This document shows positions 1-53,824 of a stretch of DNA of 64,000 bases, in pieces. How positions within the stretch are numbered: position 1 is the first letter of the stretch; the number at the start of each line of letters is the position of its first letter. The DNA is taken from the NCBI GenBank assembly GCA_002299555.1, contig DBOL01000107.1:1310-65309 (forward strand), given 5' to 3'. The DNA is from Candidatus Aminicenantes bacterium UBA647 (GTDB lineage Bacteria; Acidobacteriota; Aminicenantia; UBA2199). The notes below the pieces were generated by a model, which saw nothing but the letters and a program-made list of their open reading frames with translations, was not told where the DNA came from and ran no database searches. The position numbers and the translations under genes were made by a program.

Positions 1-586
1 AAATATTTTCTCTTTCTATTTTTTCCCCATCTATTTCCAGGAAAACCTTATAGCTCCTGAGAAATATAATTTTATCGATCACGCCGATTGTATATGAAAG
101 ATTTCCAAAAATTTTCAACTTTTGAGCAAGCTTATTCACATCTGCTACAAATCCCAGTCCGATGATGTTCAGATAATAATAAATTTTCTCACCTGTCCTG
201 AATTTGCCAACATCAACTTTCCTGGTTTTGTTACCAGCGATCAAATTGATAGCGGACCTCCAGTCTCCTGACTTCAGACCAATATCTTTCACAAATGCAT
301 TACCAGTCCCAATGGGAAGTATCCCGAAAGGAGGTTTTACTTTACCCGTATTCAAATAATATCCATTAAGGGACTCAAACATCGTTCCATCACCTCCGGC
401 CGAGACAACTCCGTCATATTCGGAAAGATCTGCATCCTTCACAAGATCAACTGCATTACCGGGGCTGGATGTTTTTAAAAGATCAACTGAAATTTTCCTC
501 TCATTAAATTCATTTTTGATCTTAGAGAGAAGTTTGTCGGCTTTGCCATTCCCTGCGGTCGGATTATAAACAAGTAAAATCTTCAT
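1..586 (-). CDS. Diacylglycerol/lipid kinase family protein (YegS/BmrU-like), N-terminal ~195 aa; 3' end lies beyond the window start
   Basis: Absent from the ORF track because no stop lies in the window. The reverse strand from ATG at 586-584 reads MKILLVYNPTAGNGKADKL...YDGVVSAGGDGTMFESLNG...FGILPIGTGNAFVKDIG. These are the DAGK catalytic-domain GGDGT and PxGTGN motifs. The frame stays open to position 1. Confidence 0.8.
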   Translation of the reverse strand, partial: MKILLVYNPTAGNGKADKLLSKIKNEFNERKISVDLLKTSSPGNAVDLVKDADLSEYDGVVSAGGDGTMFESLNGYYLNTGKVKPPFGILPIGTGNAFVKDIGLKSGDWRSAINLIAGNKTRKVDVGKFRTGEKIYYYLNIIGLGFVADVNKLAQKLKIFGNLSYTIGVIDKIIFLRSYKVFLEIDGEKIERENI

Positions 587-749
587 TTTAAATTCCTTTT
601 TGAAATTATTTTTACTACTATTTCTGATCACAAAATAAAACAATCATCAAGAATAATTTAATATTAACAAAAAGGATATAATGAAATAGGAATTTTTTCA
701 ACTCCCGGATATCATCAACCTTTTATGGTCCCTTCCAGGAAATATTTTT

Positions 750-2558
750 TTATTTTTTTATCCCAAGACGTTTCATTTTCTTATGAAGGCCCTGATAAGT
801 TATTCCAATCTCTGCCGCAGTTCTGGATTTATTCCAACTATTCTTCCCTAAAAGATGGATTATGTAATCCTTTTCAGTCCCATATTTCCCATAAATACCC
901 GTGTTTAGAATTTCCGTCCCCTCATTTATCACTTTTCCTCTTATTATTTCATCAGACAGCAATTCGAAATAGATACTCTCTCCATCCTCTACCAGATTTA
1001 CAAGCCTCCTGATCTCATTCTCCAATTGTCTTATGTTCCCCGGCCATGAATAACCTTCCATTGCTTTGAATACCTGGACAGTATATCCTCCGATGTTTTT
1101 CCCCAGCTCTTCTGAGAACTTTCCTGTAAAATAATTTATCAGAGATGAAATATCCTCTCTCCTATCCCTGAGAGGAGGAATGCTGATCCTGTGATGAACA
1201 AGTCTATAATAAAGATCTTCTCTGAAATTGCCGTCAGTAATAAGCGTTTTCAAATTTTTATTGGTCAATGAAACAATTCTGAGATCGACTTTGATTGGAG
1301 TTGTTCCCCCGACACTGTAAAATTCATGCTCCTGCAGAACCCGCAAAATTTTCGCCTGCAGCGAGAGAGGCATATCACCAATTTCATCAAGAATAAGAGT
1401 TCCTCCTGAGGCCATTTCAAGTTTCCCCTTCTTCTTTACATGAGCTCCAGTGAATGATCCTTTCTCATGTCCAAATAATTCCGATTCAAGAAGAGTCTCC
1501 GGGATAGCGGCACAATTTATTGCTACGAAAGGCCCCCTGCTCCTTCTCGAGTGTTCGTGAAGCAATCTGGCAAATAATTCCTTCCCGGTTCCGGATTCAC
1601 CATCTATCAGAACGAAAACATCACTTTTGGCAATTTTAATAGTTTGCTTTATTAAGCTCTTCACTTCAGGATTCAATGCCACAATCGATATTTTTTCAGG
1701 AACCTGACCTTCATCGTGTTCTTCTAAAACTTTTTCCCTGTCAATATTCAATAAAATTCTAGCCAGCACAGATATCTCTTTTGCAAGCAGGTCCAGGAAT
1801 TCAAGAACAATATCTCCTTCAGCGATGGAAGGATTTACGGGAACATAAATCATAACAGCTTTGATATCCCTTAATTCTACCGGGAAAGAATAGAATCTTA
1901 ATTTTGTATCAGGAAAAGTAACATCACTCCTGGATACTTTAAAGAGCTCCTTATCCTTTTCAGCAAGATTGTTAACCATATTTACAAGATCATCTATTTT
2001 TTCTATTGTGAAATAAATATTATGACCTCCGTTCTCCTGTGATAATAATGCGACCGAACCGAAATTCTGCAACTGGGACAGGTAATCTGACAGATCATGA
2101 ATGAAATGATTGAAACTTCGTTTCCTGAATCCTGTTTTTGCAATATATTGAAGTATATCTGCAAAAATATCATTTAAGAATCTGGTTTCCTCCTCTTCCT
2201 TTACCGGAGTCGGTGATGAAGAATTAATTCCATTAAATATCGGTCTTAGCTCTTCTGCTGTTTCAAACTCGTCAAGGTCCCCTTCTCTCAGAAAGAATTC
2301 CAGCCCTCCGATATTGAAGGACTCCCCAATCTCAAGCCTGGATTCTTCGATCTTAACATTTCTCACATAGGTCCCGTTTGTCGAGTCGAGGTCCCGGATA
2401 GTGATATCATTTCCAATCAGGATCTTGATATGCTTCCTGGATATGGAGTCAAGGTCGAGGACGAGGTCACAATCCTTTTTTCTTCCAATACAAACTTCAC
2501 TTCCCCTGAGTGGAAATTTCCTTATAAAGCCATCTATATAGTAAAGAAGATATCTCAT
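750..2558 (-). CDS. Sigma-54-dependent transcriptional activator (bEBP) with N-terminal FHA domain
   Basis: ORF track gives 750..2618 from a TTG; I trim to ATG 2558 (MRYLLYYIDGF...). FHA signature: CIGRKKDCDLVLDLDSISRKHIKI...DLDSTNGTYVRN. AAA+ sigma-54 interaction module: Walker A GESGTGKE, GSFTGA (GAFTGA variant), GGTLILDEIGDM. C-terminal Fis-type HTH: SRTAAEIGITYQGLHKKMKRLGI. Confidence 0.9.
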   Translation of the reverse strand: MRYLLYYIDGFIRKFPLRGSEVCIGRKKDCDLVLDLDSISRKHIKILIGNDITIRDLDSTNGTYVRNVKIEESRLEIGESFNIGGLEFFLREGDLDEFETAEELRPIFNGINSSSPTPVKEEEETRFLNDIFADILQYIAKTGFRKRSFNHFIHDLSDYLSQLQNFGSVALLSQENGGHNIYFTIEKIDDLVNMVNNLAEKDKELFKVSRSDVTFPDTKLRFYSFPVELRDIKAVMIYVPVNPSIAEGDIVLEFLDLLAKEISVLARILLNIDREKVLEEHDEGQVPEKISIVALNPEVKSLIKQTIKIAKSDVFVLIDGESGTGKELFARLLHEHSRRSRGPFVAINCAAIPETLLESELFGHEKGSFTGAHVKKKGKLEMASGGTLILDEIGDMPLSLQAKILRVLQEHEFYSVGGTTPIKVDLRIVSLTNKNLKTLITDGNFREDLYYRLVHHRISIPPLRDRREDISSLINYFTGKFSEELGKNIGGYTVQVFKAMEGYSWPGNIRQLENEIRRLVNLVEDGESIYFELLSDEIIRGKVINEGTEILNTGIYGKYGTEKDYIIHLLGKNSWNKSRTAAEIGITYQGLHKKMKRLGIKK

Positions 2559-2610
2559 CCGAATATTATATTTGTTATGGACTGTAATATCAACTTTTTT
2601 GATCAAGTTT

Positions 2611-2647
2611 ATAAACAAAGTTTATAGTCGCTATAAACTTTGTTTAT
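2611..2647. promoter_or_regulatory. Tandem palindromic operator / putative bEBP upstream activating sequence
   Basis: ATAAACAAAGTTTATAG-tcg-CTATAAACTTTGTTTAT is a perfect 17-bp inverted repeat with a 3-bp spacer. It also reads as two copies of ATAAAC-N3-GTTTAT (2611-2625, 2633-2647), 22 bp centre to centre. It sits 53 bp upstream of the bEBP start codon and about 104 bp upstream of the -24 element at 2751. Confidence 0.55.
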
Positions 2648-2750
2648 ACTGCTCAGATATCACATAATGCCCCGATCAAATATGATTGAATTTGTCTATT
2701 ACTATAGGGCGTTTTCAAAATTCTTATATTTTTTCTCGAAAACAGAATTT

Positions 2751-2766
2751 TGGCATACATATTGCT
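2751..2766 (+). promoter_or_regulatory. Sigma-54 (-24/-12) promoter
   Basis: TGGCATacataTTGCT matches TGGCAC-N5-TTGCW with exact GG-N10-GC spacing. It is intergenic, divergent from the bEBP gene, and has a palindromic UAS at the canonical distance upstream. It was the only correctly spaced match in my by-eye scan of TGGCA/TGCCA occurrences on both strands. Confidence 0.6.
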
Positions 2767-2858
2767 TTGTAATATCAACTCCTGATAACAGGGATTTTGG
2801 AAGGGATTGTTTACAAAGGAGATTTGTGAGGGGGAGAGAGTTGGAAAGGATTCTATAT

Positions 2859-5432
2859 TTACTCCTTTACAGTGAAGTCAAAGTTCTCTCCTTTGTATTC
2901 GATCTTTATTATTGAAGAGTTATCTATTTCTCCTGCTAAGATCATATTTGATAATTTGTCCTGTATCTCTTTCTGGATCACTCTCTTCAGTGGCCTTGCT
3001 CCAAGTACGGGATTAAATCCGAGTTCTGCAAGTTTATCTAATGCAATTTCGCTAATTTCGGTTTTGATCCCTGCGGATTCAAGTTGTGCCTGCAACTTTG
3101 ATATCTCTAATACTGCAATCTTTTTTATCATTTCCCTGTCCAGAGGCCTGAATGTTATAATTTCATCTATCCTGTTAAGGAATTCAGGTTTGAAATATTT
3201 GAAAAGGAGATCATCTATTTCATTTTTGATCTCTTCATATCCTGACTTTCCCTGAATAATATCAGATCCAAGATTTGAGGTCATGATGATTATAGTATTT
3301 GAAAAATTTACGGTTTTCCCTTTTCCATCAGTAAGACGCCCATCGTCCAGCAATTGTAATAAAACATTAAAAACATCAGGATGGGCTTTTTCTATCTCAT
3401 CAAGAAGGACCAGTGAATAGGGCCTCCTCTTCACTGCCTCTGTAAGCTGCCCACCCTCATCATAACCGATATATCCCGGAGGGGCACCGATAAGGCGGGA
3501 GATCGAATGTTTTTCCATATATTCAGACATGTCGATCCTTATCATAGTTTTATCATTATTGAACATGAATTCACTTAAAGCTCTGGCAAGCTCTGTTTTC
3601 CCTACTCCGGTAGGTCCTAAGAAAATAAATGATCCTATCGGTTTCCCCTGTTCATTCAATCCGGCTTTTGATCTACGGATTACATTTGCAATCGCCGTGA
3701 CAGCTTCATCCTGCCCTACCACCCTTCTTTTAATTATCTCCTCCATCCGCAACAACTTCTCTCTTTCACCGCTCAGGAGTTTTGAAACGGGGATACCTGT
3801 CCATTTTGATACAACATCCGCGATATCCTCTTCGGTCACCAATTCAGTAAGGATCTTCTTCTCGGACTGCAATTCATTCAACTCAGCCTGAATATTATCG
3901 ATCTCATTTCTAATCTCAGGAATATTGCCATATTGTATCTGAGAGGCAGTTTCATAATCATTATTCCGCTCTGCATCCTGCTTCTTTATCTTAAGATTAT
4001 CAATCTCCTCTTTTTTGTCCCTGAGTTTCCCTATTAATGATTTCTCACTATTCCAATGCTCTCTGATCTTGTCTCTTGATAACTTCAAGTCCTCAAGATC
4101 GTCAACAAGATTTTTCATTTTTTCTCTGGCATCTTTACTATTCTCTTTTTTCAAAGCCTGCTTCTCGATCTCCATCTGCATGATCTTTCTTTCAAGTTCA
4201 TCCAGCTCTTCCGGCATGGAGTCAATTTCTATCCTCAGTTTTGAAGAAGCCTCATCTATAAGGTCTATAGCTTTATCAGGCTGGAACCGATCAGAGATAT
4301 ATCTTTCCGAAAGTGTAGCTGCAGATATTAGCGCAGCATCCAAAATTTTGATCCCATGATGGATTTCATACTTCTCTTTTATTCCCCGTAGTATGGAAAT
4401 AGTCTCTTCCACCGAAGGCTGCTTAACAAAGATCGGTTGAAACCTCCTTTCAAGTGCAGGATCCTTCTCTATATACTTTTTATATTCATTGAGTGTTGTT
4501 GCTCCGATAGATCTCAACTCTCCTCTTGCCAAAGGAGGCTTAAGCATATTGGATGCATCTAAGGAGCCTTCAGATGCTCCGGCTCCGACTATAGTATGCA
4601 GTTCATCCATAAAAAGAATTATCTGCCCGTCAGATTCGACAACTTCATTTATAACTGCCTTTAACCTCTCTTCAAATTCTCCTCTAAACTTTGCACCGGC
4701 CAGAAGACTTCCAAGATCAAGCGATACAACCCTTTTGTCTTTAAGTATTTCGGGAATATCACCCTGTACTATCCTTATTGCAAGTCCCTCTACGATCGCA
4801 GTCTTTCCAACACCGGCATCACCGATAAGGAGAGGATTGTTCTTTTTTCTCCTTACCAGAACCTGCATAACTCTTCTTATCTCCTCATCTCTGCCTATCA
4901 CAGGGTCAAGTTTCCCTTCTCTCGCCATTTCAACAAGATCCTTCCCGTATTTCAGGAGGGGCTGCATTTTATCCTCCGGATTCTGATCCGTAACCCTCTG
5001 ATTCCCCCTCAGGTCCATAAGAACCTTCAGGAAAGTATCTTCATTAATTCCATACTTTTTGAGAATTGCTGCCGGATCGTTTCCGGAACGAATAATAGAA
5101 ATAAATATATGCTCGGTTGAAACATAATCATCCTTGAAATTTTTAGCAATATTGATAGAATTATCAAGAGTTTTCTTCAGCTCTTTCCCTATGAACCTGT
5201 CAGCTCCATGTACTTTAGGCAGTTTCGATACCACATCTTCGAGATCTGAAAGTATTCTTCCTGTGTCTACTCCTGTCTTCTTAAGAACTTCAGGTACTAT
5301 ATTCTCATTGTCCCTGATGATCGAGTAACCCAGATGGGCGTCTGTAACTTCCTGATTCCCATTTTCACCCGCATACCGGATACTCTCTTCAATAACCTTA
5401 TTTCCCTTTAATGTAAATTTATCCATGTTCAT
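2859..5432 (-). CDS. clpB: ATP-dependent chaperone/disaggregase ClpB
   Basis: ORF 2859..5477; I trim to ATG 5432 ([17 protein letters not shown]), preceded by GGGAG. Two AAA+ modules: [15 protein letters not shown] and [15 protein letters not shown] long coiled-coil middle domain and an ~857 aa length are typical of ClpB rather than ClpA/C. Confidence 0.95.
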
Positions 5433-5511
5433 ATTAACTCCCGGGACTCTCAATATATTTAACTGAATTTGAAGCAAACATAATTCTCATAGCCCTATTT
5501 TATTAATTATT

Positions 5512-27248: not shown

Positions 27249-27352
27249 TGGATTTTAGAAGATCAGAATAAATTATTCAATTGATAAGTGCAAGACTGTT
27301 TTCCCTTGACATATAGCGGATAAAAAAATATATTAGTCGATTGAGGATTAAT

Positions 27353-29323
27353 ATGTATAAAAGGATCAACGGAAAAAAAAATACTGGCATTACAAAAAAA
27401 AAAATCGGCTTTGTTACTCTCAAGGAAGCAACACCTGATATCTATGAAGATCTAGGTTTTAAATGTGGACTGGAAGTTCATCAGCAGCTTTTAACCGAGC
27501 AAAAATTGTTCTGCAGATGCCCAGCAGGGAAATATCAGAAAGGTGATGATTTTCAAGCAGAGATCGTTCGTCATATGAGACCTACCCTCAGCGAGCTGGG
27601 AGAATACGATGGCACGGCATTGATGGAATTCAAAACCAGAAAAAATATTACTTACAGACTGAAAAATGAAAATGCCTGTACATATGAGATAGATGATACG
27701 CCCCCATTTCCTCTGAATAGGGAAGCATTGGGGATATCCATTGAGATCGCCCTTCTATTAAAAACCTCTATAGTAGGAGAATTACACATCACAAGAAAGC
27801 AATATCTTGACGGCAGCATCCCTACAGGTTTTCAGAGAACAGCGATCGTGGGGATCGAAGGTCTGATCCCAATAAGAAATAAAAAGATCCGGATAATTCA
27901 GATGAGCATTGAAGAAGATTCCTGCAGGGAGATATCGGACATCGGGCATGAAAGAATATACTCAACAGACAGACTTGGGGTCCCGTTAATAGAAACTGTA
28001 ACATATCCTGACATGAAAACACCTGCCGAGGCCGCAGAAGCCGGGCAATACATCCGTTTCCTGGCCAGGAGTACCGGGAAAGTGAGAACCGGGATAGGAG
28101 CCGGGAGGGAAGATGTCAATGTAAGTATCAAAGGCGGAACAAGGGTTGAGATCAAAGGAGTATCCAGAATTAAGTGGATACCTCCATTAACCCATGTGGA
28201 AGCTTTCAGACAGAAAGCACTTCTTGAAATAAAAAAGATATTAGAGGAGAGAACGAAAAATGTACCTGAATGGGAAATAAGGTCAACACCTGTTGATAAC
28301 TCCATTCTGATCAAAGCAGGATTGCCATTAAAGAAGGAGTACAAAGCATCAGGGATAAGATTGCCCGGATTCAGAGCCATCCTCTCCTTTTTTACACAAC
28401 CTGAAAAAACATTTGCAGATGAGTTGAGTGAAAGGGTAAAAGTAATTGCCTGCATTGAGAAACCAAATATTGTTCATGATGAAGATTCTTCTTCAAAAAT
28501 ACCGGATGAGGTTTTTAGCGATATTTACACAAAAACCGGTGGAGATGAGAAAGATGCATTTTTAGTTGTTTTCGGCCCAGCCGGAGATATTGCAATGGCA
28601 GAGGAGACGATCCGGGAAAGGTGCCTCCTTGCATTTCAAGGAGTCCCGAATGAAACCAGGAAAGCTGTTAACAGAGAAGGTACAACTATATTTGAACGGG
28701 TTCTCCCCGGACCGAACAGGATGTATCCCGATACTGATTCTGCCCCGATCGCAATAGATGACGGCTATATAAGTAAATTGGGGAGTGACCTCCCGTCAGA
28801 TATTTATGATAGAGAAAAAATCATGAAAAACTGGAATATCCCCGAAGATACGTTCCCCTACATCCATGTAAGAAATATTTTCCCGGTCATTAAAAAAATA
28901 TCCGAGGAACTTTCATATTCCCCTTCATTTGTAGGAACAATCGTTGGACACCGCATAAAGAATGTCGACGGGAAAAATGCAATATCCCCCGGTTTTGATC
29001 ATTCAAGATTATTTGATATTTTTGAATTTTGTGAAAAAAAGAAATTAGACAGCGAACTGGTTAAGCTTATGATACCTGTTCTCCTGATCCATCCTAATAT
29101 GGACCCCGAGTCGATCTTATCTACCATCAAATTCAAAAAAAGGGATAAAAAAGAGATAATTTCAAATATCCCTCTCCTCGATAAACAATTCAATACTATT
29201 TCTAAAAAAAATGATCCCGGTGCAAAAAAGAGATGGATAATGGGACAATTGAGGCCGATAGCCGTTGGGAACATCTCCTTAAGAGAGCTGAGCAATACAA
29301 TAAACGGAGGCGGCAATGGATGA
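27353..29323 (+). CDS. gatE: Glutamyl-tRNA(Gln) amidotransferase subunit E (archaeal-type GatE)
   Basis: ORF from TTG 27341; ATG at 27353. GFKCGLEVHQQL..KLFCRCP, RHMRPTLSELGEYD, DDTPPFPLNREAL, ITRKQYLDGSIPTGFQRTAIV, DRLGVPLIETVTYPD and REDVNVSIKGGTRVEIKGV align block for block with archaeal GatE as I recall it. The ~656 aa length fits GatE, not the ~480-aa GatB. Confidence 0.85.
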   Translation: MYKRINGKKNTGITKKKIGFVTLKEATPDIYEDLGFKCGLEVHQQLLTEQKLFCRCPAGKYQKGDDFQAEIVRHMRPTLSELGEYDGTALMEFKTRKNITYRLKNENACTYEIDDTPPFPLNREALGISIEIALLLKTSIVGELHITRKQYLDGSIPTGFQRTAIVGIEGLIPIRNKKIRIIQMSIEEDSCREISDIGHERIYSTDRLGVPLIETVTYPDMKTPAEAAEAGQYIRFLARSTGKVRTGIGAGREDVNVSIKGGTRVEIKGVSRIKWIPPLTHVEAFRQKALLEIKKILEERTKNVPEWEIRSTPVDNSILIKAGLPLKKEYKASGIRLPGFRAILSFFTQPEKTFADELSERVKVIACIEKPNIVHDEDSSSKIPDEVFSDIYTKTGGDEKDAFLVVFGPAGDIAMAEETIRERCLLAFQGVPNETRKAVNREGTTIFERVLPGPNRMYPDTDSAPIAIDDGYISKLGSDLPSDIYDREKIMKNWNIPEDTFPYIHVRNIFPVIKKISEELSYSPSFVGTIVGHRIKNVDGKNAISPGFDHSRLFDIFEFCEKKKLDSELVKLMIPVLLIHPNMDPESILSTIKFKKRDKKEIISNIPLLDKQFNTISKKNDPGAKKRWIMGQLRPIAVGNISLRELSNTINGGGNG

Positions 29324-30698
29324 TCTGTTCAAAGGATATAAAGGCGAAACATTAAAGTTATTGAAGAAATTTAATGTCAGGGTATGGAGTGAAGTAGATA
29401 TAAAAAGTTCCAGAGGAGAATTCTCAGGGATAATATTGCCCAGATCAGAAAATGATGATGAAACTCATCTGGTAATAAAACTTGTCACCGGATATAACAT
29501 AGGACTTGAAACCGGAACAATAAAAAATATTATAGAAAAAGGATTCAAAGAGGCAAATTATAAAATTCCCGAGAAAGAATTCCCTTATTCAGAGGGAAAA
29601 CCAAACCTGAAACTTTTCGGTACCGGAGGAACAATAGCCTCACGTCTCGACTATAGAACCGGTGCAGTTATCCCTGCATTTTCTCCCGGTGAGTTGTATG
29701 GAGCAGTTCCGGAACTTGCCGATATATGTAATTTATCCACAGAAAAGCTATTTGCGGTTTTCAGTGAGAATATGGGCCCGGAACAATATATAGTCCTTGC
29801 AAAAGCTATTGGGGAACAGATCAGAAATGGAATAGACGGAATAATAATCGGACATGGAACAGATACAATGCATCATACGGCATCAGCTCTCTCCTTCATG
29901 GTCCAGAACTCCCCTGTGCCGATCGTAATGGTAGGCTCACAAAGATCTTCGGACAGACCTTCCTCAGATGCGGCACTTAACCTTATCCATGCGGCTACAA
30001 CAGCAGCAATTTCTGATATTGCAGAGGTTTCTGTATGCATGTTCGGCCCAACTTCAGATGATTACGGACTTATACACAGGGGAACAAGGGTGAGGAAAAT
30101 GCACTCATCCTATCGGTCCGCTTTCAGGACGATCGGAGATGTCCCTATCGCAACAGTGGTAAGAGACAAAGTTACTAAGATCAGGAACGACTACAACAAA
30201 AGAAGGAATGACAAAGATGTAAATATTCTCCCGTATTTTGAGGAAAAAATAGCATTAATATACTATTATCCGAATATGCAGCCGGATATGATCGATTCTC
30301 TGATAGAGAAGGGATATAAAGGGATCGTAATTGCAGGGACAGGACTTGGGCATGTGAACAAGCCTCTCTATCCTGCACTGGAAAGAGCCCAGAAAGCAGG
30401 CGTTGCTGTTTATATGACCGTTCAGACATTGTGGGGATTTGTACATATGTTCGTTTATGATACAGGAAGAGACATGATGAGCAAAGGTGTTATCCCTTCA
30501 GAGAATATGCTGCCTGAAGTCGCATATATAAAACTGGGATGGGCTTTGGGGCAGACAGATGATCTTGAAAAAGTGAAAGATATCATGCTCACACCCATTG
30601 CAGGCGAGATCACCAGCAGAGAACCTTACAACGGATATCTTATATATCAGGGCGGGATCCCTGAAGTCGAAGAACTGCTGAAAAAATACCATAAATAA
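29316..30698 (+). CDS. gatD: Glutamyl-tRNA(Gln) amidotransferase subunit D (archaeal-type GatD, asparaginase fold)
   Basis: 460 aa. GatD-specific N-terminal domain: GEFSGIILPRSENDDETHLVIKLVTGYNIG. L-asparaginase core: LFGTGGTIASRLDYRTGAV, IIGHGTDTMHHTA. The start overlaps the gatE stop by 8 nt (ATGGATGA) and GGAGG lies upstream. Confidence 0.85.
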   Translation: MDDLFKGYKGETLKLLKKFNVRVWSEVDIKSSRGEFSGIILPRSENDDETHLVIKLVTGYNIGLETGTIKNIIEKGFKEANYKIPEKEFPYSEGKPNLKLFGTGGTIASRLDYRTGAVIPAFSPGELYGAVPELADICNLSTEKLFAVFSENMGPEQYIVLAKAIGEQIRNGIDGIIIGHGTDTMHHTASALSFMVQNSPVPIVMVGSQRSSDRPSSDAALNLIHAATTAAISDIAEVSVCMFGPTSDDYGLIHRGTRVRKMHSSYRSAFRTIGDVPIATVVRDKVTKIRNDYNKRRNDKDVNILPYFEEKIALIYYYPNMQPDMIDSLIEKGYKGIVIAGTGLGHVNKPLYPALERAQKAGVAVYMTVQTLWGFVHMFVYDTGRDMMSKGVIPSENMLPEVAYIKLGWALGQTDDLEKVKDIMLTPIAGEITSREPYNGYLIYQGGIPEVEELLKKYHK

Positions 30699-51979: not shown

Positions 51980-53824
51980 ATGATATCAAAAGAAGCAGCA
52001 GGAATTGCAGCGCAATGCAGACATTATGCCATGTGCAAGATCGATTTTTTGCAAACCGGGTTATGCCCTCCGGGGGAAAACAATCATTATGTAAGTTATT
52101 ATCCACAGGGAAGGATGGATCTGTACGATGCTCTGGCAAAGGGACTTATCCCTGTAACCGAAAGACTTGTAGATATTGCAGATACCTGCACTTTGTGTGG
52201 AATATGCGATAAACAATGCCACTTCGTAACCGAACTCAGGCCAATGAAAGTAATGAGAGCACTTAAGGAATACGTTGACTCCCATCTGGCAGAGAATAAA
52301 AAAGTAGTTAAAATAGAGGAAGACGATATTCTCCGGCAATTTAAAAAAATTGTAGGCGAAAAAAATGCCACGAACGACCCCGCAATTCTTGTTACATATT
52401 CAAATGACCCGGCTCCCATGGCAAAACCACAAATGCCTCAATATATAGTACTCCCGTCAAATAGAGATGAAGTAAAAGATATTGTATCTATATGCAATAA
52501 ATTTAAGATCCCTTTTGCAGTGAGAGGGAACGGAAGCAGTGTATTCGGGATCGTAATGAGTGAAGGTGTTGTTCTTGATATGGGGAGAGATAAAGAGATC
52601 ACAATTGATCGGGATAACTGGAAAGTTAATACAGGTGCCGGAGTATCGGCATTTGATCTTCAACAGGAAGCTGAGAAGAACGGCTTCAGAGTGAACTCAG
52701 CAGAACCATCTGCTATAGTGTGCTCCAATATAATGTGTTCAGGTATATTATCCACATTTTCGAACACTTACGGGACCGGAGCAGACAACTATGTGGATGC
52801 AGAATTTGTCAGTAATAAGGGGGAAGCATTTGACCTGAATGACAAGATCGGCCCGAATCTCTTCGGCTTTGACAAACAGGGTTCCCCTTCTCCGGGGATC
52901 TGTACCGGAGCATCCATAAAACTACACAAAGTTACCGAAGATGAGGAGGGTATCGGGATCCCTTTTTCTTCATTCGATGAAGCTGCGATCTTCTGTAGAG
53001 ATCTCAGCCACAGAAGGATCGGTATCTCTATTGCAATGCTTGGTGGAGAATATATTTCCACATTTATTTCTCCTACATCCGATCTTGCAGAGAAAGTAAA
53101 AACACTCTTTATAGAAACGTTGGGAATCAAATTTCTGGTGGTTGTGATCGGAGATAAATATGCTGTAGAAACAATAAAAAAAATGACCCCCGTTACGATA
53201 GATGACAAATTATTCCGATTAATGATGCTTAGCCTTCCCCAAATGGTAGAGGGTGAGTGGATAGAAATGCTGGGAGATATAGAGACAGATGTGAATCTAT
53301 TTGAACTATTTTGTAAAGAAGAGATGTATCCATTATTGGAGACAGTATTAGATCCCTCCCCGGAATCAATCGGAGCAATAGTTCCGGAAGACCTGAGAGA
53401 TTTTTATACTCAACTCTATTCACGACCGGAGATGACAAATTTGGCATGGTTAAGTACTTTCCGTATCCTGAGTTCCCGCATGGGAAGATTCAAACATGTT
53501 GTTGCTTTTATCGGATATGCTCCTCTGGACAAGTTGGAAGTTATAAAACAAATGATCGGGGAATTCAAAAGAATTGGAGACAAATACGAGCTTAAACATG
53601 ATTATGGTTTCATAACACCTGTTGATCTGGGAAAACGCGCTATCCTGGAATATGATTTCTATATCGATCATACAGATCCTGCAGAGATACAGCAGATGCT
53701 CAGAGCAATGGGTGAAGCAGGCCCGATGATCGGAGAATTAAGCCAGAAGCACAAAGGGATCCAATGGATCAATACTATCCTTTTTCAGGGATTCTCCCGT
53801 AAAGAAAATTTTTTATACCGATAA
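51980..53824 (+). CDS. Fusion oxidoreductase: N-terminal Cys-rich (Fe-S-type) module + FAD_binding_4 (PCMH-type) domain + uncharacterised C-terminal half
   Basis: 614 aa. Cys clusters CRHYAMCKIDFLQTGLCP and CTLCGICDKQCHF. FAD-binding block PQYIVLPSNRDEVKDIVSICNKFKIPFAVRGNGSSVFG. I did not recognise the last ~300 aa as the usual FAD-oxidase C domain. Confidence 0.65.
   Translation: MISKEAAGIAAQCRHYAMCKIDFLQTGLCPPGENNHYVSYYPQGRMDLYDALAKGLIPVTERLVDIADTCTLCGICDKQCHFVTELRPMKVMRALKEYVDSHLAENKKVVKIEEDDILRQFKKIVGEKNATNDPAILVTYSNDPAPMAKPQMPQYIVLPSNRDEVKDIVSICNKFKIPFAVRGNGSSVFGIVMSEGVVLDMGRDKEITIDRDNWKVNTGAGVSAFDLQQEAEKNGFRVNSAEPSAIVCSNIMCSGILSTFSNTYGTGADNYVDAEFVSNKGEAFDLNDKIGPNLFGFDKQGSPSPGICTGASIKLHKVTEDEEGIGIPFSSFDEAAIFCRDLSHRRIGISIAMLGGEYISTFISPTSDLAEKVKTLFIETLGIKFLVVVIGDKYAVETIKKMTPVTIDDKLFRLMMLSLPQMVEGEWIEMLGDIETDVNLFELFCKEEMYPLLETVLDPSPESIGAIVPEDLRDFYTQLYSRPEMTNLAWLSTFRILSSRMGRFKHVVAFIGYAPLDKLEVIKQMIGEFKRIGDKYELKHDYGFITPVDLGKRAILEYDFYIDHTDPAEIQQMLRAMGEAGPMIGELSQKHKGIQWINTILFQGFSRKENFLYR

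Follow-up and report, generated by a model that had tools for sequence, protein, structure and literature searches.

A predicted sigma-54-dependent non-coding RNA gene between clpB and an FHA-domain activator gene in Aminicenantes

In a 64-kb stretch of DNA from Candidatus Aminicenantes bacterium UBA647 (contig DBOL01000107.1; hereafter the window, whose coordinates are used throughout), the spacer between clpB, the gene for the ClpB disaggregase, and the gene for an FHA-domain sigma-54 activator appears to encode a non-coding RNA. We consider it probable (roughly 0.7) that this locus is an RNA gene transcribed by sigma-54 polymerase under the control of the neighboring activator. The original prediction, made from the sequence of the window alone, had proposed an activator/sigma-54 module with a small or antisense RNA running into the 3' end of clpB, and this proposal is upheld by a conserved promoter, conserved activator-site dyads, a fold specific to the + strand, and synonymous constraint on clpB. 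Hardly any regulatory RNAs are known from phyla other than the cultured model ones; the RNA described here would be the first small RNA (sRNA) supported by comparative genomics, and the first assigned member of a sigma-54 regulon, in the uncultured Aminicenantes. The wiring diagram, which comprises signal domain, activator, binding sites, promoter, and RNA, is complete and testable.

Promoter, activator and predicted binding sites

The clpB and activator genes lie in tandem on the - strand, separated by about 300 nt, and the sigma-54 promoter is directed out of this spacer in the opposite direction, into the end of clpB. The motif of the proposed promoter, TGGCATacataTTGCT at 2751-2766 (+ strand), is present as described: in TGGCAT-N5-TTGCT, the GG of the -24 element (2752-2753) and the GC of the -12 element (2764-2765) are exactly 10 nt apart, in a context that resembles TGGCAC-N5-TTGCW. 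The clpB stop codon (2859-2861, - strand) is located on the downstream side of this promoter, as had been stated. The exact string TGGCA-N6-TTGC occurs once in the window, with 0.26 occurrences expected, and at least once in 23 of 100 shuffles. A scan with a sigma-54 position weight matrix, which had been suggested as a check and for which we made the matrix, gave a divided answer: the site ranks first in the window, at 16.4 bits, and the same score was reached in 2 of 30 shuffled windows. Taken alone, the promoter match is not significant and lies, as a borderline case, within chance for a 64-kb AT-rich window. Further strong matches to the matrix at 52016 (- strand) and 38952 (+ strand) are intragenic and without dyads, and were taken as chance occurrences. 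The promoter element exceeds chance because it is conserved in relatives, not because of the match itself.

This conservation was examined in 28 orthologous loci, which came from a one-genome-per-species set, from metagenomes, and from contigs obtained via protein matches; a metagenome scan with the N-terminal 300 amino acids of the activator yielded three loci only, one of them a paralogue. The activator protein by itself assigns the window to Candidatus Aminicenantes, and the orthologous Aminicenantes activators, encoded in metagenome-assembled genomes (MAGs), are 46-87% identical to the window protein. In all orthologous loci clpB is upstream of the activator gene and on the same strand, and gene callers leave the spacer empty. 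All 28 loci retain the pattern GG-N10-GC, with neither its orientation nor its distance to the dyads changed; 22 of them have the exact TGGCA-N6-TTGC, and the remainder have TGGAA, TGGTA or ATGC variants. An alignment of 17 spacers revealed five conserved islands amid unalignable DNA, i.e., the sigma-70 hexamers of the activator gene, the dyads, a TATAGG box, the -24/-12 element, and the predicted transcribed region, and the -24/-12 columns are invariant. The comparison with relatives that had been proposed for this locus thus found the promoter, the dyads and the downstream RNA to be kept. The order clpB, RNA, activator gene is retained in distant groups that lack nadA/aldolase and the downstream synteny. 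Several MAGs titled 'uncultured Clostridia bacterium' (L003, L006, L007, L009, L011, L020) contain a locus of the Aminicenantes type, with activators 50-76% identical and the same synteny, and the Clostridia labels of these bins look wrong.

The activator gene (750-2558, - strand; ATG at 2558) encodes a bacterial enhancer-binding protein of 602 amino acids. That a divergent FHA-domain sigma-54 activator gene starts at 2558, as originally claimed, was confirmed by Pfam, translation, and motifs. Its Pfam domains are FHA, Sigma54_activat (E = 4.6e-68), AAA_lid_14, and HTH_8; the FHA domain occupies residues 23-84, the AAA+ sigma-54 interaction domain residues 294-458, and a Fis-type helix-turn-helix residues 562-598. 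The GSFTGA loop and the Walker A and B motifs (GESGTGKE, LILDEIGD) are intact, and by its sequence the protein is equipped with all motifs required to act on sigma-54. The residues of the FHA domain that bind phosphothreonine (GR, SRKH, TNG) are also present, and a Ser/Thr-phosphorylation input to the activator would be consistent with these intact motifs; none of the genes annotated at 750-41082 of the window was recognised as encoding a Ser/Thr kinase or phosphatase. We predict that the RNA depends on the activator, on sigma-54, and on a phospho-signal. No Pfam family accounts for residues of about 95-290 of the activator, a stretch of some 200 amino acids that follows the FHA domain and precedes the AAA+ domain and that may constitute an undescribed sensory or oligomerisation domain. 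The activator gene is followed by a gene for a DAGK_cat/YegS-type lipid kinase (window 1-749, - strand) and then by an OPT transporter gene, an order found only in one group of relatives, group A (e.g., L005 7959-8849, L052-L057).

A predicted sigma-70-type promoter (2565-2593, - strand) precedes the activator gene and consists of TTGATA (2593-2588), a 17-nt spacer and TATAAT (2570-2565). It has 11 of 12 matches in a promoter scan. Only 6 nt separate the TATAAT from the ATG, which no Shine-Dalgarno sequence precedes. Of 17 aligned relatives, 16 retain both hexamers and the spacing. The activator mRNA is probably leaderless, with a transcription start that we place from the position of the hexamers.

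Tandem dyads of ATAAAC-N3-GTTTAT had been reported at 2611-2625 and 2633-2647, and they are present at these positions. As 17-mers (TATAAAC-N3-GTTTATA, TATAAACNNNGTTTATA) they extend over 2610-2626, the distal site TATAAACAAAGTTTATA, and 2632-2648, the proximal site TATAAACTTTGTTTATA, with centers 22 bp apart. Jointly they make up a perfect inverted repeat, 2610-2627 / 2631-2648, the arms of which are 18 nt long, not 17 as first given, and enclose a 3-nt spacer. When one mismatch at most is allowed, 0.30 dyads are expected against the two present, and at least two were found in 3 of 100 shuffles, adjacency not being demanded. Every one of the 28 orthologous loci has at least one near-perfect dyad, and the loci of groups A and B have two, 21-22 bp apart and at a nearly constant distance to the promoter. 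The dyad centers in the window are at about -159 and -137 from the predicted RNA start, within the 80-200 bp or so expected of activator sites and, at their 22-bp spacing, on one face of the helix; those of group A are at -158 to -163 and -137 to -141. We regard these dyads as predicted binding sites of the activator. They are also centered at about -60 and -82 from the predicted sigma-70 start of the activator gene, and it is plausible that the activator regulates its own gene through them. The 5' arm of the RNA described below contains TTGTTTACAAA (2807-2817), which resembles the dyad half-site TTTATAAACAA (2608-2618), probably by coincidence.

In the intergenic alignment, the sole conserved block between the dyads and the sigma-54 promoter is a TATAGG(N)G box (2700-2710), the TATAGG of which (2703-2708) is about 45-50 nt upstream of the -24 element. 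On the - strand this box reads CCTATAGT or CCTATAAT and is similar to a -10 element. It could bind a bending protein or a third regulator, or it could act as a second promoter for transcription of the activator.

A strand-specific fold over the clpB coding end

The predicted non-coding RNA (2777-2907, + strand) would begin 12 nt past the C of the -12 element, and its structure suggests that the functional RNA reaches at least the base of a long hairpin at 2907. The + strand of 2777-2915 has a minimum free energy (MFE) of -45.5 kcal/mol (z = -3.5), and the opposite strand one of -24.3 kcal/mol (z = -1.8). A 5' stem-loop, UCCUG-AUAA-CAGGG (2780-2793, + strand), in which helix 1 is 98-100% paired and shows U·G to C-G changes, is directly followed by an invariant single-stranded linker, AUUUUGGA (2794-2801, + strand). 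Distant groups, too, carry a 5' hairpin straight after the start. The remainder of the RNA is a long, imperfect hairpin (2802-2907, + strand) with an intergenic 5' arm and a 3' arm that is antisense to the end of clpB. The 5' arm (2802-2837) is purine-rich and includes a run of G residues (2829-2833). The apical region (2838-2857), which is unpaired in the consensus fold computed with RNAalifold, presents UUGGAAAGGA at 2841-2850, and the 3' arm (2858-2907) is antisense to the clpB stop codon and the last 16 or so codons. The motif UUGGAARGGAU is found twice in the RNA, at 2797-2807 and again as the UUGGAAAGGA copy in the apical region, and TTGGAAAGGA is identical in 10 of 12 core sequences. 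Among close relatives (L001-L058) the G-run has 5-10 G, a change in length which the helix tolerates and which could represent either real homopolymer slippage or assembly error.

RNAalifold gave the same consensus structure whether 10 or 12 sequences were used. With 12 aligned sequences, 97.3% of pair cells are paired and five pairs have changes on both sides; the observed pairing or covariation score was reached in 0 of 500 shuffles, a control which overstates significance where, as here, the sequences are related. When the partner was slid by 1-3 columns, pairing fell to 48-64%. Of the 408 pair cells, 104 are G·U and none is A·C on the + strand, and therefore the helix can be formed only by RNA of the + strand. 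Because pairing is strand-specific, the structure belongs to the sigma-54 transcript and is neither a structure of the clpB mRNA nor a DNA palindrome.

A covariance model built from the 12-sequence seed matches each locus exactly once, has no further match in the window, and recovers the diverged non-seed members L056 (E = 1e-7) and L003 (E = 1e-4). With 14 sequences aligned to the model, double changes occur in 13 of 34 pairs, although an alignment fitted to the model leans towards structure. Rfam 15, searched over the whole window at gathering thresholds, yielded two tRNAs only, and a search of 2500-3050 with E up to 10 yielded spurious miRNA and snoRNA matches and no credible family. A search for 10-mer complementarity between the RNA and the window found only the RNA's own clpB arm. 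We also considered a local hairpin, ACAAA-GGAGA-UUUGU (2813-2827, with GGA in the loop), as a CsrA site or switch, and rejected it as a conserved structure because it is broken in L057 and L052 and its 3' half is part of the long helix.

These results bear on the possibility that no sigma-54 RNA is made at all. The -24/-12 site would then be a chance or silent site, the inverted repeat would serve as a terminator or 3' stabiliser of clpB, and the dyads would regulate the activator gene only. The statistics of the promoter match would allow this, many sigma-54 sites in E. coli bind the holoenzyme without transcription (PMC4591121), and in principle the clpB mRNA, too, could fold at the inverted repeat. 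Nevertheless, we find this explanation very unlikely. On the - strand the 104 G·U cells become A·C, which leaves 71.8% of cells paired and only the weak fold given above; the invariant GG-N10-GC never changes its orientation or its distance to the dyads; and the RNA motif persists in loci in which clpB does not lie next to it.

The original prediction had also suggested a tiny hydrophobic protein as the product. A frame of 29 codons does open at GTG 2826 in the window, with AAAGGAG 4 nt upstream, at 2815-2821 and not, as then given, at 2814-2820. Two other frames were considered and rejected: a nested 24-codon open reading frame (ORF) from TTG 2842, which is stopped or shifted in L019, L055, L004 and L052, and a 22-codon ORF from TTG 2807, which has no usable Shine-Dalgarno spacing and is broken by insertions and deletions in the G-run. 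Besides the presence of these ORFs and of AAAGGAG, the TTG-2842 frame, which is open in 8 of 14 relatives, would speak for a protein product. However, across the 14 relatives no ORF keeps its start, frame or length. The GTG is replaced by GTA or TTA in 8 of 13 aligned relatives, and the run of 5-10 G ahead of the 29-codon frame varies by non-multiples of three even between close relatives, such that the peptide differs even where the GTG is kept. The hydrophobic peptide is a reverse-strand reading of the ClpB C-terminus, and most of each of the candidate peptides is dictated by clpB codons on the opposite strand; AAAGGAG itself lies within the covarying helix. The suggestion therefore did not hold, and we give a protein product hardly any credence.

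The clpB gene (2859-5477, - strand; Pfam domains Clp_N, AAA, AAA_2, and ClpB_D2-small) ends with TAA at 2859-2861, and its true start is probably an ATG near 5432. No sigma-54 site was found upstream of clpB, which has sigma-70-like promoters instead. The long helix uses 2858-2907, such that the predicted transcript overlaps the gene, and in 19 loci the distance from the predicted start to the clpB stop is 72-93 nt. The 5' arm of the hairpin resembles the sense strand of the clpB 3' end in degenerate form; clpB GTAAAGGAG, for example, corresponds to GTGAGGGGGAG in the arm. In the window the arm has TACAAAGGAGA opposite the clpB codons TAC AAA GGA GAG (Y K G E). In relatives with AGA (R) or GAA (E) at the codon concerned, the arm is changed to match or to form G·U (L019, L006, L052), and in L007, L020, and L059, in which the ClpB tail is DGKGF, the arm is GATGGGAAGGGTTTT and the helix has 15-20 bp. 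In groups A, B, and C, the MFE fold pairs the intergenic part with the clpB part through 15-40 pairs, despite different ClpB C-termini.

The overlap is also visible in the clpB gene. Pairwise synonymous difference among nine full-length group A clpB genes is 0.30 in the last 16 codons, compared with a gene mean of 0.50, and this is the lowest value of 53 non-overlapping windows, the rest of which lie between 0.39 and 0.63. Sliding windows that start 16-24 codons from the clpB end (0.29-0.31) are the 9 lowest of 843. Within the clpB tail, codons under the two helices are constrained and codons under the internal loop vary normally. This synonymous dip under the hairpin implies that something besides the protein constrains the clpB tail, and the fading of the constraint about 24 codons into the gene suggests that the functional RNA is short and not an extended antisense transcript.

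Possible functions of the RNA

The following sequence of events would account for these features. The activator would be made from its own, probably leaderless, sigma-70 promoter, and an activator oligomer would bind the two TATAAAC-N3-GTTTATA dyads at about -137 and -159. Engagement of a phosphothreonine partner by the FHA domain would then lead the activator, using ATP, to remodel and open the sigma-54 holoenzyme at TGGCAT-N5-TTGCT, and transcription would proceed from near 2777 on the + strand. The RNA would fold into the small 5' hairpin, the AUUUUGGA linker, and the long hairpin at 2802-2907 with UUGGAAAGGA at its apex.

As to what such an RNA does, our tentative preference, held at somewhat below even odds, is that it regulates clpB in cis. 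When the promoter fires, the clpB mRNA or its read-through into the activator gene would be trimmed or destabilised, and this action would couple a Ser/Thr phospho-signal to expression of the disaggregase. We favor action in cis because deeply diverged lineages have retained the adjacency, the fixed distance, and the overlap, and because the RNA, transcribed head-on to clpB, would be fully complementary to the 3' region of that gene. If this is correct, Ser/Thr signalling is linked to disaggregase expression.

Action mainly in trans is almost as likely as action in cis, and the two roles can coexist. In this case the same RNA would work through its exposed purine motifs (the UUGGAAAGGA loop, the UUGGAAGGGA linker, and seven GGA triplets in 84 nt), either by pairing with pyrimidine-rich, CCUUUCC-like sites in other mRNAs or by titrating a GGA-binding protein of the CsrA/RsmA type, and the clpB hairpin would be only a structural and terminating module at the 3' end. 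The evidence for this is found in the purine sequences themselves. A stretch of the form G(4-9)-AGRG-(U)GGAAAGG is present a single time, and only downstream of the sigma-54 promoter, in each of the 27 orthologous loci with sequence that extends to it; a regular expression detected it in 26 of the 27, and the copy missed, GGGGAGCAGGGAAAGG in L010, was recognised by eye. The G-run is always paired, with the clpB antisense in groups A and B, with a downstream C-run in group C, and with an upstream CUCCUC in group D, and its sequence and that of GGAAAGG are conserved in every group though the pairing partner differs. The GGAAAGG part tends to be exposed and is unpaired in the consensus fold. Two of the GGA triplets, which occur in contexts such as CAGGGAU and AAGGAU, are in the unpaired apical region, one is in the linker, and the others are in helices. 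Moreover, all characterised sigma-54 sRNAs that adjoin their activator genes act in trans, GlmY and CrcZ among them. Qrr and Pxr are the further examples (PMC13501541, PMC5568312). Against action in trans, the Rfam CsrB/Rsm models gave no match, and the strict distance to clpB and the adjacency would be left unexplained.

Loci in which other genes separate the RNA from clpB are informative in this regard. In L010 (5244-5620, - strand) and L013, a gene for a single-domain CheY-like receiver lies between the two on the strand of the RNA, and in L015 (5275-5607 and 5004-5297, both - strand) and L011, genes for a 110-amino acid membrane protein and then a 97-amino acid protein are found in this position. 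These genes may be co-transcribed cargo of the same promoter. Paralogous FHA sigma-54 activators in L017, L018, and L051, which are 46-47% identical, have a similar divergent -24/-12 promoter that is directly followed by a Shine-Dalgarno sequence and a gene for a secreted protein with a signal peptide; the dyad of L051 differs and is of the type TATATGAACG..CGTTCATAT.

Such arrangements raise the alternative that the conserved stretch is the 5' leader of an ancestral cargo gene (the receiver or the 110-amino acid membrane protein) that was lost in the lineage of the window, together with a terminator that shields clpB from antisense transcription. The ORF of L011/L015 begins 20-35 nt past the purine motif with no terminator between, the receiver gene of L010/L013 follows on the same strand, and the paralogous activators drive their secreted-protein genes directly. 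Against a leader, the promoter and the dyads persist in 22 loci (groups A-C) that have no cargo, together with an RNA of which about 80 nt are nearly invariant, whereas a vestige would decay; the RNA constrains clpB synonymous sites; and in L013 a GC-rich hairpin followed by AUUUUC separates the motif from the receiver gene, which points to a discrete RNA in that locus too. Overall, we judge the leader explanation improbable.

It is similarly unlikely, in our estimate, that the RNA is a switch coupled to clpB, in which the sense-copy 5' arm masks the antisense 3' arm. The clpB mRNA, when abundant, and the 3' arm would form a perfect duplex, stronger than the G·U-rich hairpin, and the hairpin would open; the freed purine-rich arm, which is Shine-Dalgarno-like and rich in GGA, and the loop could then act on other targets or proteins. 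If this were true, the cell would read its chaperone mRNA load and a Ser/Thr phospho-signal together through sigma-54.

Several observations weigh against the interpretation of the locus as a discrete, activator-controlled RNA gene that acts on clpB, in addition to the borderline promoter match and the relatedness of the sequences behind the shuffle controls. The existence, start, and end of the transcript are themselves predictions from sequence. Strict terminator scans of the window, L013, and L021 found none on the strand of the RNA, the U-rich tail after the long hairpin is not conserved among relatives, and the RNA may be a longer antisense transcript. The difference between cognate and non-cognate duplexes (-34.1 and -29.2 kcal/mol) is modest because the purine-rich and pyrimidine-rich arms pair promiscuously; the duplex energies form clade blocks, strong for A with A and B with B and weak for A with B, with a modest overall separation. 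The purine motif is kept in L010/L013 and L011/L015 though one or two genes part the RNA from clpB, which speaks against a purely cis role, and in these loci the element could equally be a 5' leader. Finally, tblastn found no match to RpoN, CsrA or Hfq in about 570 kb of scattered sequence, of which 64 kb are from this genome, too small a sample for the result to be informative.

Elsewhere in the window, adjacent genes at 27341-30698 (+ strand) encode proteins of 660 amino acids with GatB_N and of 460 amino acids with GatD_N/asparaginase domains. By these domains they would be a GatE/GatD-like pair, i.e., a Glu-tRNA(Gln) amidotransferase usually deemed archaeal, here in a bacterium.

Comparison with known systems

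In Vibrio, qrr1 adjoins luxO and is transcribed divergently from it. Qrr small RNAs are produced from a -24/-12 promoter by sigma-54 and LuxO, a signal-controlled AAA+ activator (PMC13501541). The Aminicenantes locus is similar in that a predicted sigma-54 sRNA lies beside a divergent, signal-controlled activator. It differs in the signal input, which is an FHA domain here and a receiver domain fed by a His-Asp phosphorelay in LuxO, and in belonging to another phylum. Qrr RNAs also have a normal terminator and overlap no gene, and they do not resemble the RNA described here in sequence or structure, the Rfam Qrr model having given no match at the locus.

The pxr gene of Myxococcus and its relatives is intergenic, beside nla19, and has a predicted sigma-54 promoter, an enhancer site, and stable stem-loops (PMC5568312). 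Common to both systems are an sRNA gene beside a gene for a sigma-54 regulator, a sigma-54 promoter with an enhancer, and a stable fold. However, pxr is downstream of nla19, is not divergent, and has no overlap with its other neighbor; Nla19 is a response regulator; and Pxr has three stem-loops and no Rfam match here.

GlmY with GlrR in enterobacteria and CrcZ with CbrB in Pseudomonas are further sigma-54 sRNAs encoded beside their own two-component systems, and they act via repeated short motifs as decoys of an RNA-binding protein. A decoy role has been described for GlmY (PMC7073468). In contrast to the RNA studied here, GlmY and CrcZ have response regulators as activators and no antisense overlap with a neighboring gene, and their motifs differ, those of CrcZ being A-rich.

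With regard to the overlap, the transcript resembles cis-antisense RNAs in being complementary to the 3' end of a convergent gene. For such 3'-overlapping RNAs of convergent genes, duplex formation and polymerase collision are possible. Unlike a plain cis-antisense RNA, the antisense part here is predicted to be pre-folded on a co-evolving, sense-like intergenic arm, and the RNA has a dedicated activator. Its density of GGA triplets, some of them in predicted single-stranded or loop positions, is reminiscent of CsrB, RsmY, and RsmZ, but most GGA triplets here are helical, no Rfam Csr/Rsm model matched, and the known RNAs of this type are under the control of GacA/UvrY and sigma-70.

Jelsbak, Givskov and Kaiser (PNAS, 2005) reportedly described enhancer-binding proteins with FHA domains in Myxococcus xanthus. 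The activator described here shares with them an N-terminal FHA domain, an AAA+ sigma-54 module, and a C-terminal helix-turn-helix, an order of domains that implies an input from Ser/Thr kinases, but the M. xanthus proteins regulate developmental protein-coding genes. We know of no description of an FHA-type activator dedicated to an adjacent non-coding RNA, and a literature search found no paper that links Aminicenantes with sigma-54 or CsrA, and none of relevance on clpB antisense together with RpoN.

The RNA is of the same kind as Qrr, Pxr, GlmY, and CrcZ but is a member of none of these families. It is previously undescribed, and it is distinct in its FHA input, in its phylum, and in having its main helix built on the coding end of a neighboring gene. 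Its evolution is unusual, in that the coding end of a conserved chaperone gene supplies one helix arm, the other arm changes with the codons of that gene, and the clpB gene shows a dip in synonymous divergence. The scheme of a sigma-54 activator with an adjacent sRNA, known from Vibrio, Pseudomonas, enterobacteria, and myxobacteria, would thereby be extended to an FHA activator that reads phosphothreonine.

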